NCBI GenBank assembly: GCA_029262535.1 | Contig: JAJCZF010000083.1 | Coordinates: forward strand, 37,094-101,093 | DNA length: 64,000 nt | Direction of reading: 5' to 3' | Source of the DNA: Deltaproteobacteria bacterium | GTDB lineage: Bacteria; Desulfobacterota; GWC2-55-46; JAJCZF01 | Shown: one piece after another, positions 957-7,608 of the stretch | How the letters are laid out: each line of letters starts with the position of its first letter | How positions within the stretch are numbered: position 1 is the first letter of the stretch | Notes under the pieces: model-generated | Databases searched by the model: none | Seen by the model: only the letters and a program-made list of their open reading frames with translations | Told to the model about the DNA's origin: nothing | Position numbers and translations under genes: made by a program

Positions 957-2078
957 CTAGCGCCGCTCGTCCATATAGGAACCGTGCCGCGCCTTCTTAG
1001 ATGTAGCCAGTTGATATTCGATAATCCGGGTTATCTTCTCAAGGCTCATAAGGTCGTAATCGTACGATTTCACTTTAAGGTCGTCCGGTCTCTCTGTCAG
1101 AATATTTAAGAAGACCGACATGAGGTCTCGATCCCAGAAACCCTTCTGACTCTCCTCGGACAAGAGCTTGAGGAGCTTTCTTCTGTTGATTGCCCTCTTG
1201 TAGGCGCGGTCGCTTGAGAGAGAATCGTATAGATCCACTATCTGAAAGACCCTGGCAAGGAAAGGTATCGAAACGCCCCTGAGTCCGTCGGGGTAGCCCG
1301 AGCCGTCGTATCTTTCATGGTGGTGGCGTATGATCTCCGCGACATCTTCCCTTCCCTTCAGCACACAGCTTAGGAGAGATCCGGCCTCGGGATGTTTTTT
1401 GACTATATCCATCTCTTGTTTACTGAGCTTGACAGGCTTGTTGAGTATCGCGTCAGGCACGGCTAGCTTGCCGATATCGTGCAAAAAGCTTGCGTAGGTA
1501 AGTGTCTTGATATCTTCGAAGGAAAGGCCCAGTTCCGTTGCGAAGACCTTGCATCCGTGAGCGAGCCTGTCGCAGTGACCATTCGAAAAGTTATCCTTGG
1601 CCTCTACCATCCGCGCGGTCGCAAATAGCGCCAGCTCCTCCACTCTCAGCCCGTCAAAGAGCCTTTTCTGCTCAACGGCAATATTTACGCGGTGCATCAT
1701 ATGAAGGCTATTGTAGGGTTTAATAACGAGTTCGTCGGCACCCACATCCATAGATTTTTTAATGAACGACCAGCTTGAATCGGAGGTAACTAACAGGACG
1801 GGCAGGTATTGGAGGTGGAGCTTGTTGCGTATAATGGAGCAGACTTCAAAGGCATCCATCTTCTCTCTATTGACGTCCAGAAGGACGATATCATACCGGT
1901 CCGGGCTGGTCGTGAGCTTCTCTACAACCTCTTCTCCGGAGGAGACGACCGTGGTGTCGAAGCGCGGAGGCAAGAAGGCGCACTGCATGGACCTTCTCTG
2001 ACTCTTCGAGTCGTCAAGTCCGAGAACCCTGTACGTGATGATCTCGTCAGACATTATTCCGTTCTTATTTTCTGTCAT
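957..2078 (-). CDS. Response regulator with receiver domain and HD-GYP domain (predicted c-di-GMP phosphodiesterase, RpfG-like)
   Basis: 373 aa. Receiver motifs LGLDDS, IVLLDVN and VIKPY; HD-GYP motifs HDIGK and HHERYDGSGYP. GGTGGAG RBS. Confidence 0.85.
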   Translation of the reverse strand: MTENKNGIMSDEIITYRVLGLDDSKSQRRSMQCAFLPPRFDTTVVSSGEEVVEKLTTSPDRYDIVLLDVNREKMDAFEVCSIIRNKLHLQYLPVLLVTSDSSWSFIKKSMDVGADELVIKPYNSLHMMHRVNIAVEQKRLFDGLRVEELALFATARMVEAKDNFSNGHCDRLAHGCKVFATELGLSFEDIKTLTYASFLHDIGKLAVPDAILNKPVKLSKQEMDIVKKHPEAGSLLSCVLKGREDVAEIIRHHHERYDGSGYPDGLRGVSIPFLARVFQIVDLYDSLSSDRAYKRAINRRKLLKLLSEESQKGFWDRDLMSVFLNILTERPDDLKVKSYDYDLMSLEKITRIIEYQLATSKKARHGSYMDERR

Positions 2079-2238: not shown

Positions 2239-3072
2239 TCAATACGCGTAAAATTTGGATATCTCCGCTTCGCGTTTTTTTAGCTCTGCCTTGATCTTCT
2301 CATAGGCGCTATCGCTCAGGCAAAGCGACTGTAGTATCTCCTCGTGCATCTCGGATTCGATGATATCCATGGCGAACTTTTCTTTACCGCCGCTCACCAT
2401 GCAGTCGCCGATATAGACGACCGGCGTAAGGTTCATCTCCTCTTCCGGGTTCTGGAGCCATCTTTCAGGGGTGTGATGAAAGCGTATCGCCTTTATAGTA
2501 TCCTCGTGAAAATTATATGCCTCGCCGAACCACGCGCCGACACCCGGATGGGTAAAGCCGTATGCGTCGTACTCGCGCTCCTCCAGCCCGAAACTTCCCT
2601 TGATAGAGAGCGCGATATAGGCCGGACCGTAGGCCTGATATAATACGACCCGCCCGATGTCGTTTATGAGCCCTGCAAAGAAGGCGTCTTCTTTCTTGAC
2701 TATGCCGGCCTCCTCGGCGATAAGGCTGGAGGCCAGGGCAACCTCAAAGGAGTGGTGCCATAAGGCGTTTAGAAATAAACGGTCTCGCTCGTTCTTCGCC
2801 GTAAATAGCGATACGCTAACCGCTATATTCCTTACCATCTCGTATCCGAGTATGACGGCGGCCCTCTTGATAGACAAGACCTTTCCCCTCAGGCCGTAAA
2901 AGGCCGAATTGGCCATGCCGACAACACGCGTTGCCAGGGCCTGGTCGCTTTCTATTACCTTTACGAGATCGTCAAGCGAGAAATGTTCCTTACTTATTAC
3001 CTCGTTAACTCTCTTCAGAGTTACAGGTAAGGTCGATATATCGAGCAGGTGTTCAAGCTTCTTATAGGGCAT
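2239..3072 (-). CDS. HDOD-domain signalling protein
   Basis: 277 aa with HDOD-like signature (LPVTLKRVNEVI..., DQALATRVVGMANSAFYGL, HSFEVA, ND(I)G). AAGGAGG RBS. Confidence 0.75.
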   Translation of the reverse strand: MPYKKLEHLLDISTLPVTLKRVNEVISKEHFSLDDLVKVIESDQALATRVVGMANSAFYGLRGKVLSIKRAAVILGYEMVRNIAVSVSLFTAKNERDRLFLNALWHHSFEVALASSLIAEEAGIVKKEDAFFAGLINDIGRVVLYQAYGPAYIALSIKGSFGLEEREYDAYGFTHPGVGAWFGEAYNFHEDTIKAIRFHHTPERWLQNPEEEMNLTPVVYIGDCMVSGGKEKFAMDIIESEMHEEILQSLCLSDSAYEKIKAELKKREAEISKFYAY

Positions 3073-3245
3073 CTTAGCCTCCTTGCGAGCCTTTATTCGC
3101 TTCGCTTAAAGCCCTCCATACTTCTATTTTATACCCATTTCCGAGACCGGACAACTTGAATAGAACTATAAAGTCGGAATCGCTTATTAAAAAAGAATTG
3201 ACCACCTATATATCAGGTGCCATATTAAGTTCTAAATATTTTCTT

Positions 3246-3320
3246 TGATCAGAGCAAACCCGTCGAAAGGTGGGGACGCAGAGTCACGAGGCTACAGTGT
3301 GGTTACTATGCCCGTCGGAC
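3246..3320 (+). promoter_or_regulatory. c-di-GMP-I (GEMM-I) riboswitch aptamer candidate
   Basis: AGAGCAAACCCGUCGAAAGGUGGGGACGCAGAGUCACGAGGCU matches the remembered GEMM-I core (GCAAACC, GAAA-tetraloop hairpin, GGGACGCAAAGCC, CGG.CU). Hairpins can be drawn at 3259-3274 and 3286-3315. The 3' strand overlaps a terminator arm. Confidence 0.7.
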
Positions 3321-3353
3321 CGCCGAAGAGCAATTCTTCGGCGGTCTTTTTTT
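3318..3353 (+). terminator. Intrinsic terminator (riboswitch expression platform)
   Basis: Perfect 12-bp stem GACCGCCGAAGA/TCTTCGGCGGTC with a 5-nt loop, followed by T7. Confidence 0.8.
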
Positions 3354-3360
3354 ATCAGAT

Positions 3361-3909
3361 ATGGAGTTTTATAAAAAGATGAGATCTAAACGTTTACGCG
3401 CGCAGCGGCGCGGAGTGGAGCTTGTAAAAAAAGGGCACTATGAAGAGGCGAAAAGAGTTTTTAGCAATAAAGAGATAGAAAGAAGCACCCCGGTATCGAT
3501 AGCGGCCTACGCCCTGACGATGGCCGCCCTGGGCAAGGATGTCGAGATTGCTATCGAGTTATGCCAAAAAGCAAAGAAACGCGACAGCAATAACCCGATA
3601 ATAGGGCTCTGCCCCGGCAGGCTCTACATCTTATGCGGCGACAAGGGACGCGCATTCAAGACATTTATGGAAGGGCTGCACAGTAACGCCGGACACCGTG
3701 AGCTGACCGCGGAACTACGGGCCTTCAAAGAGAGAAGCCTTCCCCCTATCAGACTTCTAAATAGAAGCCACCCGCTTAACAGAGTGCTCGGCAAGAGCCG
3801 TACCCTCTTAAATAGCGACGTCAAAGAATTCCCCGATATGGCGCGCGCCGCCTACCTCTATGCAAGCCAAAAAGAGATTAAACTGCCGGGAAGAGCCTGC
3901 CTTGGTTAA
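3361..3909 (+). CDS. Hypothetical helical (TPR-like by eye) protein downstream of the riboswitch
   Basis: 182-aa ORF. There is no SD before the ATG at 3361; an alternative ATG at 3379 lies 12 nt after GGAG. No recognisable catalytic motif. Confidence 0.5.
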   Translation: MEFYKKMRSKRLRAQRRGVELVKKGHYEEAKRVFSNKEIERSTPVSIAAYALTMAALGKDVEIAIELCQKAKKRDSNNPIIGLCPGRLYILCGDKGRAFKTFMEGLHSNAGHRELTAELRAFKERSLPPIRLLNRSHPLNRVLGKSRTLLNSDVKEFPDMARAAYLYASQKEIKLPGRACLG

Positions 3910-3968: not shown

Positions 3969-4370
3969 ATGGCGAAAAACAGGAGCGAGTTATACTCATC
4001 GACTTTTCAACTTTTCACCGACCGGAGCCGCGGCGTGCCAGATCTCGACAGAGACGAAATCAAAAAGATGATAGAAGAGGAGATATCATCGGTCGAGCGC
4101 GAGATTCCTATAATAAAGGAACAGACGCGACCCGTGGCGCCCGATAACGCCATCGGCAGGCTTACGCGCATCGAGGCCATCAACTCCAAATCGATCAACG
4201 AAGCGGCGCTTCGCTCCATGCAGGCGCGCCTGTCCGGCCTTAAACGCGCCCTTGCCAATATAGACGACCCCGACTTCGGCCTCTGTACCGAATGCGGAGA
4301 AGAGATACCGGTAAAAAGAATCAAATTAGTGCCCGAAAGCACTCGCTGCGTCACCTGCGCCAACGGGTAA
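3969..4370 (+). CDS. DksA/TraR-family C4 zinc-finger protein
   Basis: 133 aa. The C-terminal CTECGEEIPVKRIKLVPESTRCVTC four-Cys finger, preceded by a coiled-coil region, is typical of the family. Confidence 0.8.
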   Translation: MAKNRSELYSSTFQLFTDRSRGVPDLDRDEIKKMIEEEISSVEREIPIIKEQTRPVAPDNAIGRLTRIEAINSKSINEAALRSMQARLSGLKRALANIDDPDFGLCTECGEEIPVKRIKLVPESTRCVTCANG

Positions 4371-5193: not shown

Positions 5194-7608
5194 CTAATCG
5201 GCGGCGCTCTCCGTCTCTATATCCACCTCTATCGTTGGCTCATCCGCGGCCTTAGACTTTTTGGATGTAGTTTTTCGGCTCTTCATTACCGTAGTCGCGG
5301 TTTCATCTTTTTGGGTCTTTTTAGCGGGTTTTCTGGTCCTGCGCCTCTCGGCGGCCTTGGCCTTTATCTCTGCCGCCAGCTCGTTGGCCTTGTCGTACTT
5401 CCACCTGACTACCTGGAAGTAGGGTATGATATTTGGAAGTTCGTCGAGCGCTATGATGCCGTTCTCGACCTTATAGAGGGCGTCTTTTATCATCGGTATA
5501 AGACCGTGATTCGTTGCGCTATCGTATAGCTCGTCAAAGGGGGCGTTTTGTATGATCAGTTTCTTACTCTCCACATCGACCAGCCATAACTCGAATACCG
5601 CAATCCTTCCCTTATGACCCATGAAGTTGCACTTCTCACAGCCCATGCCCTTTTTGAACTCGACATGCGAGGGTACTCCGTTGGGGTAGAATGAATCGAG
5701 TAGTTCCTTAGAGGGTTTGTGCGGGGCAAGGCAGTGGGGACAGTTTCTCTTTGCAAGTCTCTGGGCCAGTATCGAGACCATCTCCGCCGCTATTGTGCCC
5801 GAGACGAGGTCGAGGTCCATCAACCTCTGGATTGTCTCGACCGTATTGCTGACATGAAGGGTCGAGAATACAAGGTGCCCGGTCTGACTGGCGCGAAGGG
5901 CCTCCATCGCCGTCTCGCGGTCCCTTATCTCACCTACCAGTATGACATCGGGGTCCTCTCGCAGGAAGGCCCTGATCGCATCAGGGAAGCCGAAACCTAT
6001 CTCTTTCTTAACCTGCGACTGCTGAAGCCTCGTCACGGAATACTCAATCGGGTCCTCTATGGTCAGGACCTTCTTGGTTACGTCCTTACTGATAAGGCCG
6101 AGCGTCGAATAGAGGGTCGTCGTCTTTCCCGAACCGGTCGGGCCGACGATAAGGATCATGCCGGAAGGGTTTTGAATGACCTTACTGAAACGAGCCTCGA
6201 TATCGGGCATGAAACCGAGCTTTTCGAGCAGCATGGTGTTGGCCGATTGCTTAAGCAACCTTATGACGACATTCTCTCCGTGCAGCGTAGGCTGGGTCTG
6301 AACGCGAAAGTCGAATGTCATGTCGCCCATTCTGCGCCGAAAACGCCCTGCCTGGGGCAGACGGCGCTCGGCGATATTAATATCGGAGCTAATCTTTATA
6401 ACATTGACGACGCCGTTAATATTCTTTTTGGTTATGCGGATATCGTTATTATCATAGAGCGTGCCGTCGACGCGATATCTTATAAAAACATCTTTGTCGT
6501 ATGTCTCAAGATGTATATCCGAGGCCCCGGCCTTTATGGCCTGCACAAGCAGGGCGTTGGTGATCTTTTGATACTTCTTGGTCGTAACCTCGATAGACTC
6601 GATCTCGCCTTCGAATCCTTCGGTGATGGCCACATCCTCAAGAAAGTCGTCTGCTCCTTCCTCATCTTCCTGATCTTCTTCATCATGTTGAAGGCCTGAC
6701 GAGGCCTCGTCCACGAAGATATGCCTGAGTATCAGCGCTATATCTGAGTAAGTGGTGAGGTTGATATGCACGTGCGTGCAACCGAGCGCGGCCTTGAGGT
6801 CTTCGCTATCTATCGTCGGTTCGGCCGTTACGACGAAGATGGTGTCGCCCTCCCTCAAATAAGGCACGGTAGAGTTGTGTATACAAAAGGCCTTGGAGAG
6901 TTTTAGCGCAAGCTCTTTGTCGAGCATGGGCAGGAGGTCTTGTTGAGCGATAAGCGGGATGCGCCTCTGGGTGGAGAGCATCTTGAAGAAATCAACCTCG
7001 TTGACCTTGCCTGTCTCGATAAGGACCTTGCCGACCATACGCTGAGTCTTGCGACTCATGTAAAGGGCCTCTTCCATATCCTCATCGCTGACGTAACCGT
7101 CGCGGACGAGCACTTCTCCAATCCTCGCGCTTGAGACCCCCCTCTGCTGGAAGGTGGAATAACAGCGTTTTATTGAGGAATATACGTCCGGGTCTTCAAA
7201 GAGAAGGACATCTACCTTTCTCTTTACGAGCCCTGATAGCACTTCCAGCTCGTCGGGAGTAAGGTCGCTATTTGATGATACGAGCAGTATCTCGTCTCCA
7301 AGCGAGACGAGCGGCATAACAGCGTAACGCGTCGCAACCTCTTCGGTGATCCACGTAAGGACGCGCGGCTCGACCAGGTACTTGCCGGAGGGCAGGAAAT
7401 CGACATTATCCTTCTGTTCGCAGAGTATGCGAACAAGCGTCATAGTCTCGACAAAACCGCGCTTTACGAGGATCTTACCGAGCAGCTCGCCGGGGTTTAT
7501 ACTATATTCCTTATCCCCGTAAGACTGTATCTCAAGGGCAATACGCAGGTGATCCCTTGAGATATGCCCTTTTCTTATTAGAATTTCACCTAGCCTTGGC
7601 TTGGCCAT
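5194..7608 (-). CDS. GspE/PilB-family secretion ATPase with two N-terminal MshEN-like (T2SSE_N) modules and a Lys-rich C-terminal tail
   Basis: 804 aa. Walker A GPTGSGKTTT; Walker B/Asp box, His box and a tetracysteine (CPHC...CEKC) typical of the family. The N-terminus carries four copies of the 24-aa MshEN-type motif (RLGEILIRKGHISRDHLRIALEIQ, LLGKILVKRGFVETMTLVRILCEQ, RIGEVLVRDGYVSDEDMEEALYMS, MVGKVLIETGKVNEVDFFKMLSTQ). Confidence 0.85.
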   Translation of the reverse strand: MAKPRLGEILIRKGHISRDHLRIALEIQSYGDKEYSINPGELLGKILVKRGFVETMTLVRILCEQKDNVDFLPSGKYLVEPRVLTWITEEVATRYAVMPLVSLGDEILLVSSNSDLTPDELEVLSGLVKRKVDVLLFEDPDVYSSIKRCYSTFQQRGVSSARIGEVLVRDGYVSDEDMEEALYMSRKTQRMVGKVLIETGKVNEVDFFKMLSTQRRIPLIAQQDLLPMLDKELALKLSKAFCIHNSTVPYLREGDTIFVVTAEPTIDSEDLKAALGCTHVHINLTTYSDIALILRHIFVDEASSGLQHDEEDQEDEEGADDFLEDVAITEGFEGEIESIEVTTKKYQKITNALLVQAIKAGASDIHLETYDKDVFIRYRVDGTLYDNNDIRITKKNINGVVNVIKISSDINIAERRLPQAGRFRRRMGDMTFDFRVQTQPTLHGENVVIRLLKQSANTMLLEKLGFMPDIEARFSKVIQNPSGMILIVGPTGSGKTTTLYSTLGLISKDVTKKVLTIEDPIEYSVTRLQQSQVKKEIGFGFPDAIRAFLREDPDVILVGEIRDRETAMEALRASQTGHLVFSTLHVSNTVETIQRLMDLDLVSGTIAAEMVSILAQRLAKRNCPHCLAPHKPSKELLDSFYPNGVPSHVEFKKGMGCEKCNFMGHKGRIAVFELWLVDVESKKLIIQNAPFDELYDSATNHGLIPMIKDALYKVENGIIALDELPNIIPYFQVVRWKYDKANELAAEIKAKAAERRRTRKPAKKTQKDETATTVMKSRKTTSKKSKAADEPTIEVDIETESAAD

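Follow-up and report, generated by a model that had tools for sequence, protein, structure and literature searches.

Which cyclic dinucleotide is read by the riboswitch that precedes a small gene near the start of a 64,000-nucleotide (nt) stretch of Desulfobacterota DNA, and in which direction would binding switch that gene? The stretch, referred to here as the window, comes from a Deltaproteobacteria bacterium of an uncultured order (GenBank assembly GCA_029262535.1, contig JAJCZF010000083.1, positions 37,094 to 101,093). The original prediction, made from the letters of the window, described at 3246-3353 a c-di-GMP-I (GEMM-I) riboswitch, that is, a sensor of cyclic dimeric guanosine monophosphate (c-di-GMP), whose terminator controls an uncharacterised protein. 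In our analysis the fold and the terminator platform stand, but the ligand probably does not, as an adenine (A3253) occupies the position of G20 in Vc2, the archetype of the family. The account that we favor, with moderate confidence, is a GEMM-Ib-type ON switch for the 3',3' form of cyclic GMP-AMP (cGAMP) in which an intrinsic terminator controls the gene of a tetratricopeptide repeat (TPR) protein.

The full window was scanned with the covariance models of Rfam 15 (cmscan), and the only family above its gathering score was RF01051, c-di-GMP-I, with a match at 3243-3327 on the plus strand that reaches 62.2 bits against a gathering score of 35 (E 9.3e-10) and is full-length (model positions 1-87 of 87). 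This bears out the predicted GEMM-I fold; the aptamer sequence that had been quoted is present at 3251-3297, and the GAAA-tetraloop hairpin and the second hairpin are both there. The window element has the two-hairpin GEMM-I architecture of a GNRA tetraloop with its receptor, closure by helix P1, and covariation. None of 200 dinucleotide shuffles folds as stably as the leader (z = -3.3). The P1 core pairs 3243-3247 with 3324-3328, can be extended to 3241-3247 with 3324-3330, and is present in the minimum-energy fold of the nascent transcript (ViennaRNA). This register is preferred because it carries compensatory changes and reproduces the topology of Gs1761, the Geobacter pgcA leader (PDB 4YAZ), in which P1 is formed by G1-G8/C76-G84, with A9-A14 as J1/2 and G74-C75 as J1/3 (PMC6274999). 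An alternative register beside the pocket, 3248-3252 with 3324-3328, was dropped in its favor, as the register chosen matches the 6-nt J1/2 and 2-nt J1/3 of Gs1761. Transcription is predicted to start at about 3233-3236, a few nucleotides 5' of P1, from a promoter that is further from consensus than those of the two paralogous leaders in the same genome (TTGACA-17-TATAAT and TTGACA-17-TATATT, at equal upstream distance). The coordinates of all strands and junctions are given in Table 1.

Both folds of the leader covary. A set of 12 leaders of the A type (those with adenine at the G20 position), drawn from seven genomes of the order, was aligned, and a covariance model built from it aligned 33 hits of the order and 27 more phylum-wide; fitting to the model biases the phylum-wide alignment toward structure. 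In the 12 leaders 91% of the cells of the aptamer fold are paired, with compensatory changes in 12 pairs, and the terminator helix has 98.6% of its cells paired and compensatory changes in 5 of 12 pairs. None of the shuffle controls reached the observed values on most measures, at most 4 of 500 did so on any, and sliding the register reduced pairing to 31-55%. Across the 12-leader and phylum alignments the aptamer fold stays at 91-94% pairing with 12-21 compensatory pairs, values matched by 0-1 of 500 shuffles and lowered to ~30-48% by shifts. All six of the six inner pairs of P2 show compensatory changes, as do four of the five pairs of P1 in the phylum-wide set. Alignment columns 82-83 covary with the 5' strand of P3 and also with the 3' arm of the terminator, as expected from their alternative pairings. 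The shared backbone of the A-type leaders, scaffold 1, reads CUUUG-CUCAG-A-GCAAAC ... GCAGAG ... CCGCCAAAG, with a CUUUGGCGG-U6-8 terminator behind it, and occurs in at least four families.

The terminator located by the consensus scan has a stem of 14 pairs (8 G-C), in which the 12 Watson-Crick pairs of the predicted 12-bp/U7 hairpin are flanked by two G.U pairs, with a CAA loop and a T7 tract that ends 7 nt before ATG 3361. Its 5' arm takes in the last four nucleotides of P3, J1/3 including C3323, and the entire 3' strand of P1; once the hairpin forms, the partner of C3323 is G3341. Because the same arm holds the P3 and P1 3' strands together with C3323, aptamer and terminator are mutually exclusive. 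Folding of the nascent transcript with ViennaRNA, which uses no homology information, favors the three-helix aptamer as long as the 3' end lies at 3330-3338, where it is the structure of minimum energy; from 3342 onward P1 is invaded by the terminator, which has formed in full at 3347. At -37.9 to -42.3 kcal/mol, the terminator fold exceeds the unliganded aptamer (-23.6 kcal/mol) in stability by ~14-18 kcal/mol. As the two folds exclude each other and the terminator is by far the more stable, termination by default and read-through dependent on ligand are predicted, and the folding model thus predicts an ON switch in the cell, a polarity that the original prediction left unstated, with a decision window of ~17 nt. 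The same design, including capture of the ligand-pairing C by the terminator, is found in the pilM cGAMP ON switch, which has been dissected experimentally (PMC9262584). An ON polarity here would also be consistent, by analogy, with the decrease of all Geobacter GEMM-Ib target genes upon deletion of gacA (PMC6456294).

The clearest departure from a c-di-GMP aptamer lies in the pocket. Model position 11, unpaired and just 5' of the GCAAAC helix, has a consensus G against which cmscan aligns A3253, and the G at this position that marks canonical c-di-GMP specificity is missing from all three GEMM-I copies of the genome (2.2 Mb, 87 contigs), the window element and both paralogs being A-type with the same terminator design. 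G20 of Vc2 reads the Hoogsteen edge of one c-di-GMP guanine, and cGAMP-binding riboswitches carry an adenine there (A14 in Gs1761), which defines GEMM-Ib (PMC6140456, PMC5888326). The window element further has the C at the C92/C75 position (C3323) and the intercalating A in J2/3 (A3280) of that class. The adenine is fixed in 24 of 24 scaffold-1 A-type relatives of the order and in 34 of 34 scaffold-1 sequences from at least four families phylum-wide. It does not stand alone: all A-type sequences have G in place of the consensus A at the position of G3281, and P3 of the A-type aptamers invariably begins with an A.C mismatch, here A3282 and C3321. Adenine 20 is thus accompanied by the J2/3 G and the P3-base mismatch in 34 of 34 A-type sequences, compared with 2 of 26 of the G type, where GCAAAG and an A-U pair in place of the mismatch are the rule; the two exceptions belong to one genus. 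Three nucleotides near the pocket that change together argue for an adapted binding site rather than for drift.

The enzymes encoded in the genome point in the same direction. There are 22 GGDEF domains: the substrate-selectivity position is occupied by the canonical Asp in 19 and, alongside a GGDEF motif, by Ser in three. The signature of Hypr GMP-AMP cyclases is a Ser (Ser348) nine residues after Asn339, combined with GGDEF and never with GGEEF (PMC6456294). The three candidates, on contigs C15, C66, and C87 of the window's genome (G000), read NDKYGHICGS, NDRYGHVYGS, and NDAHGHLAGS, each with GGDEF, and all three are GAF-GGDEF proteins, the architecture of the cAMP-activated cGAMP synthase GacB (10.1101/600031). 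For one of them the closest solved structure is the Hypr domain of Geobacter metallireducens GacA (6d9m; 153 bits, compared with 112 for PleD), with the Gly-Ser aligned. An ortholog of one Hypr GGDEF is present in ~39 of 41 genomes of the order, and all 20 of the 20 sampled keep Ser and GGDEF. Two of the 22 HD-GYP domains carry RxxN or RxxQ in place of Rxx(K/R), the Rxx(Q/N) motif having been proposed for cGAMP-specific phosphodiesterases (10.1101/600031). A domain search of the genome found no CD-NTase/SMODS domain, the hallmark of alternative cGAMP synthases such as DncV. One genome thus combines candidate signatures of a writer, an eraser, and a reader for Hypr-type cGAMP signaling. Because A3253 defines GEMM-Ib and the genome has both the Hypr-GGDEF and the Rxx(Q/N) HD-GYP signatures, the c-di-GMP assignment is probably wrong and the ligand is most likely 3',3'-cGAMP; an automated c-di-GMP-I label would then attach the wrong second messenger. 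The same three signatures indicate that Hypr-type cGAMP signaling would be a conserved core trait of this order. So far the pathway has been characterized mainly in Geobacter, Myxococcus, and Bdellovibrio.

In the mechanism that we propose, 3233-3353 would be the leader of a small transcription unit, an A20 (GEMM-Ib) aptamer fused to an intrinsic terminator. The three-helix aptamer (P1, P2, and P3) would fold first as the leader is transcribed. Bound 3',3'-cGAMP would hold P1 and the base of P3, with the ligand adenine at A3253, its guanine at C3323, and A3280 stacked between the two; the 5' arm 3317-3330 would then be unavailable and RNA polymerase would read into the TPR gene (ON). Without ligand, the terminator hairpin would displace P1 and capture C3323, and transcription would stop at U7 (OFF). 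The ligand would most likely be supplied by the conserved GAF-domain Hypr-GGDEF enzymes of the lineage.

RuvB encoded in the window shares 67-73% identity with that of metagenome-assembled genomes from groundwater and sediment that carry the label Deltaproteobacteria or Thermodesulfobacteriota. The distribution of targets was surveyed in 41 genomes of the order, which is distinct from that of Geobacter within the same phylum and has small genomes of 1.3-3.0 Mb; 35 GEMM-I hits were obtained. Fourteen of these lie directly upstream of a gene of the same TPR family, at a distance of 34-109 nt in 13 cases and of 877 nt in the other, and all 14 of the 14 TPR-linked switches are A-type. The A type also governs a PilX-like minor pilin (in the window's genome), Fe-S/FAD oxidoreductases, and membrane proteins. 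Behind the G-type switches lie genes for Fn3/PKD surface proteins and for large exported proteins of unknown family. One genome (G010) holds two A-type switches before TPR genes and three of the G type before exported proteins. Geobacter likewise keeps its GEMM-I and GEMM-Ib regulons apart, and by analogy the division seen here supports distinct inputs.

Several observations weigh against the cGAMP account. Ligand binding and switching at this leader are read from its sequence and predicted folds, and the 19 canonical GGDEF domains imply that c-di-GMP is abundant in the cell. The Hypr ortholog also occurs in genomes without any GEMM element, so that its co-occurrence with the A-type switch does not discriminate, and the two variant HD-GYP domains are recognized by a sequence pattern at the Rxx(K/R/Q/N) position, not by structural alignment. 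J1/2 of the window element (AUCAG-A; CUCAG-A in relatives) is nearer to that of Vc2 (CACAG-G) than to that of Gs1761 as described. In Gs1761, here compared by its described positions, this junction has adenines at positions 9, 11, 12, and 14 (PMC6274999), unlike AUCAGA/CUCAGA. Hypr GGDEFs also make c-di-GMP in vitro (PMC6456294, 10.1101/600031). Lastly, A20 is not proof of selectivity: the Vc2-G20A mutant has roughly the same affinity for c-di-GMP (53 nM) as for cGAMP (120 nM), and Cbe 1-2, an A20 aptamer found in nature, favors c-di-GMP (30 compared with 463 nM for cGAMP). At the other end of the range, the A20-type pgcA leader discriminates ~1200-fold against c-di-GMP (PMC6456294). All A20 aptamers bind cGAMP, with a discrimination against c-di-GMP that spans from ~1200-fold to none or reversed, and since some of them bind both ligands the degree of discrimination cannot be read from a sequence.

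These points bear most directly on an unlikely reading in which the A20 aptamer binds both dinucleotides alike, c-di-GMP by way of a protonated A3253, and acts as an OR gate through which either ligand turns on the TPR gene. Dual binding is described as widespread in the class, as the affinities of Vc2-G20A and Cbe 1-2 illustrate, J1/2 is similar to that of Vc2 save for the G-to-A change, and c-di-GMP components lie nearby (a Rec-HD-GYP protein with RAYK, an HDOD protein, and a MshEN ATPase). The coexistence of A- and G-type switches with separate targets in the same genomes is, however, hard to explain if the A type reports c-di-GMP, and the co-variation of three pocket-adjacent nucleotides with the adenine also speaks against it. 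It is improbable that the leader is a canonical c-di-GMP riboswitch in which A20 is merely tolerated, as the original prediction would have it. The top Rfam family, the 19 canonical GGDEF domains, and the preference of certain natural A20 aptamers for c-di-GMP agree with such a reading, whereas G20 is the conserved Hoogsteen-edge contact and A the published cGAMP determinant (PMC6140456, PMC5888326), the adenine is fixed in all scaffold-1 sequences, and the genome has the candidate cGAMP writer and eraser signatures. We give little chance to the idea that the A-type scaffold may form a subclass of its own, either a dual sensor of cGAMP and c-di-GMP or a sensor of another Hypr product, with the TPR family as the effector arm of an order-wide cGAMP pathway. 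A different ligand (c-di-AMP, a linear dinucleotide, or another Hypr product) or a ligand-blind constitutive attenuator is very improbable: the combination of A20, the J2/3 G, and the P3-base A.C was not found tied to a measured specificity in the literature checked, and Hypr GGDEFs are promiscuous in vitro, as cited above, but the guanine partner C3323 and A3280 are retained, and a strongly conserved junction with helices that covary across many genomes points to a functional ligand-binding fold. In addition, recognition of c-di-AMP by this fold reportedly required a U at the C92 position in work of Smith et al. from 2010.

A cGAMP switch of this kind would resemble the GEMM-Ib riboswitches of Geobacter (Gs1761 and the G. 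metallireducens pilM leader) in many respects. The three-helix GEMM-I fold, the phylum, A at G20, C at C92, the intercalating A, the 6-nt J1/2, and the GC J1/3 are shared, as are a terminator that seizes the P1 3' strand and the ligand-pairing C (ON), the co-occurrence with a Hypr GGDEF, and a connection of at least one target to type IV pili, through the PilX-like gene behind a paralogous copy. Here, however, the main regulon is a small TPR-plus-tail family instead of cytochromes or pilMNOP, the window's genome has three copies compared with 13-17, and the candidate synthase is GAF-GGDEF (GacB-like), unlike the Rec-GGDEF protein GacA. With Vc2 of Vibrio cholerae the element shares the Rfam family and the GAAA tetraloop with its receptor, but Vc2 has G20 in place of A20 and discriminates against cGAMP (dissociation constant about 10 uM), its G20A mutant being bispecific, and the intrinsic terminator sets the window element apart from it. 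Vc2 is thought to act on translation. The c-di-GMP-I riboswitch Cd1 of Clostridioides difficile likewise has a GEMM-I aptamer that governs an intrinsic terminator, but it works as an OFF switch, its antiterminator is a separate element, and on its long platform aptamer and terminator are compatible (PMC9262584), whereas here they are exclusive on a platform of ~17 nt. The candidate writers are, by sequence, like GacB (MXAN_2643) of Myxococcus xanthus in their GAF-GGDEF architecture, the Ser at the selectivity position, and the GGDEF motif. We know of no report that M. xanthus pairs GacB with riboswitch readers. The GEMM-Ib kind and its ON-switch design are already known; new are the dominant TPR-plus-tail regulon, the GAF-type Hypr GGDEF as a core gene of an uncultured order, and the signature of three nucleotides seen along with the specificity A.

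Table 1. Positions of the leader elements and adjoining genes in the window, and of variant HD-GYP domains on other contigs of the same genome (G000)
Feature	Position	Strand	Details	Basis
Sigma-70-like promoter	3198..3226	+	TTGACC (3198-3203), 17-nt spacer, TG-extended CATATT (3221-3226)	consensus scan
P1 5' strand UUCUUUG	3241..3247	+	core CUUUG 3243-3247; partner 3324-3330	register from Gs1761 topology
J1/2 AUCAGA	3248..3253	+	ends in specificity base A3253 (= Vc2 G20, Gs1761 A14)	cmscan alignment
P2 hairpin	3254..3279	+	GAAA tetraloop 3265-3268	cmscan alignment, folding
J2/3 AGA	3280..3282	+	A3280 = Vc2 A47, predicted to intercalate between the two bases of the ligand	cmscan alignment
P3 hairpin	3283..3320	+	tetraloop-receptor-like CUA...UAUG	cmscan alignment, covariation
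J1/3 GC	3322..3323	+	C3323 = Vc2 C92, Gs1761 C75, predicted Watson-Crick partner of the ligand guanine	cmscan alignment, Gs1761 topology
P1 3' strand CGAAGAG	3324..3330	+	wholly within the terminator 5' arm	
Intrinsic terminator	3317..3353	+	5' arm 3317-3330, loop 3331-3333, 3' arm 3334-3347, U-tract 3347-3353	
Regulated gene, TPR protein	3379..3909	+	176 aa, cytoplasmic; alternative start 3361 gives 182 aa	public gene call
DksA/TraR-type zinc-finger ORF (open reading frame)	3969..4370	+	no terminator found between the TPR gene and this ORF	
HD-GYP variant	G000:C34:47859-48356	+	RVYN	sequence pattern
HD-GYP variant	G000:C56:18086-18568	-	RVYQ	sequence pattern
HD-GYP variant (third)	C9:40177		RVYG	sequence pattern

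The regulated gene had been described as a 182-residue ORF of no assignable function that lacks a Shine-Dalgarno sequence at its ATG. The ORF exists (3361-3909), but the missing ribosome-binding site is an effect of the start chosen: the public gene call of 176 residues begins at ATG 3379, 12 nt upstream of which lies GGAG (3363-3366), and this is probably the true start. Nor is the protein without assignment, as modeling and homology make it a three-repeat TPR protein of a lineage-wide family. TPR models are matched by 16 of 18 aligned family members, the window protein alone falling under the Pfam cut-offs (E about 0.004). The AlphaFold2 model built from the family alignment is helical throughout (predicted local distance difference test, pLDDT, 82.7), and its Foldseek neighbors are the three-repeat peptide-binding TPR domains of Hop, CHIP, RPAP3, and SGT (template modeling scores 0.5-0.75, E no better than 2.5e-3). 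Behind the repeats the family alignment shows a conserved C-terminal motif, LGxRRxPxIxFLxRxNxxNxxxG, for which no known motif was matched. In the model this segment (residues about 118-140, window 3730-3800) is predicted coil with a block pLDDT of 83-87 and lies beside the TPR domain, and it may dock in the protein's own TPR groove.

Forty of the 41 genomes carry the family, with two to four paralogs per genome, and a profile search returned 66 cluster representatives at E <= 1e-30, mostly of 145-180 residues. It was recovered by genome and hidden Markov model searches; a word-indexed homolog search with the 182-residue protein returned only the protein itself, and a scan of the genome contigs with this single protein returned nothing. 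Scans of domain and family libraries assigned no function to the family. As an uncharacterized TPR family of roughly 150-180 residues placed directly under A-type switches, it would offer a starting point for cGAMP outputs beyond Geobacter.

The DksA/TraR-like ORF downstream may be co-transcribed with the TPR gene; as a conserved operon partner it was ruled out, since relatives do not have it behind their TPR genes. The neighborhood is dense in cyclic-dinucleotide components. An HDOD protein (2239-3072, minus strand) lies upstream of the riboswitch and is transcribed away from it, as is a Rec-HD-GYP response regulator (957-2078, minus strand) with an intact GYP motif; the canonical RAYK of the latter left its candidacy as a cGAMP-specific phosphodiesterase unsupported. 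An ATPase with MshEN and T2SSE domains is encoded at 5194-7608 on the minus strand.

The two paralogous leaders of the genome differ in their surroundings. At L003 (G000:C33:2129-3259) a single A-type switch precedes two tandem TPR paralogs (2281-2685 and 2822-3259), from which it follows that the family has expanded under riboswitch control in this genome. At L002, on the minus strand of G000:C45 (about 1385-1500), a remnant P3 3' half, CUAAAGACUACGCCUGCCGGGCCGCC, comes after the third A-type aptamer with its terminator and is followed by a second terminator, GGCCGCC...GGCGGCC-U6, after which the PilX_N-domain gene comes next. The remnant looks like a decayed second aptamer and resembles the tandem GEMM-Ib arrangements of Geobacter.

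Two further groups of elements were noted among the G-type switches and their relatives. Scaffold 2 (CACCGAUAAG-G-GCAAAC...GCAAAG...GGGGCUG-U-CGAAG), seen in L041, L049, L026 (G010), and L027 (G023:C5), precedes large exported proteins and has G at position 20 and U at the ligand-pairing C92 position. Its best Rfam match is marginally c-di-GMP-I-GGC (60-61 bits against a cut-off of 59), without the diagnostic G of that model, and its G20/A47/U92 pocket could differ in specificity. Family f7 has the scaffold-1 backbone with a long insert in P3; the specificity base is G in its members L033 (G015) and L036 (G021), which share a genus, and A in L038 (G008) of a sister genus. Such a pair amounts to a natural G/A swap on near-identical aptamers, and the two G versions precede Fn3/PKD surface proteins.

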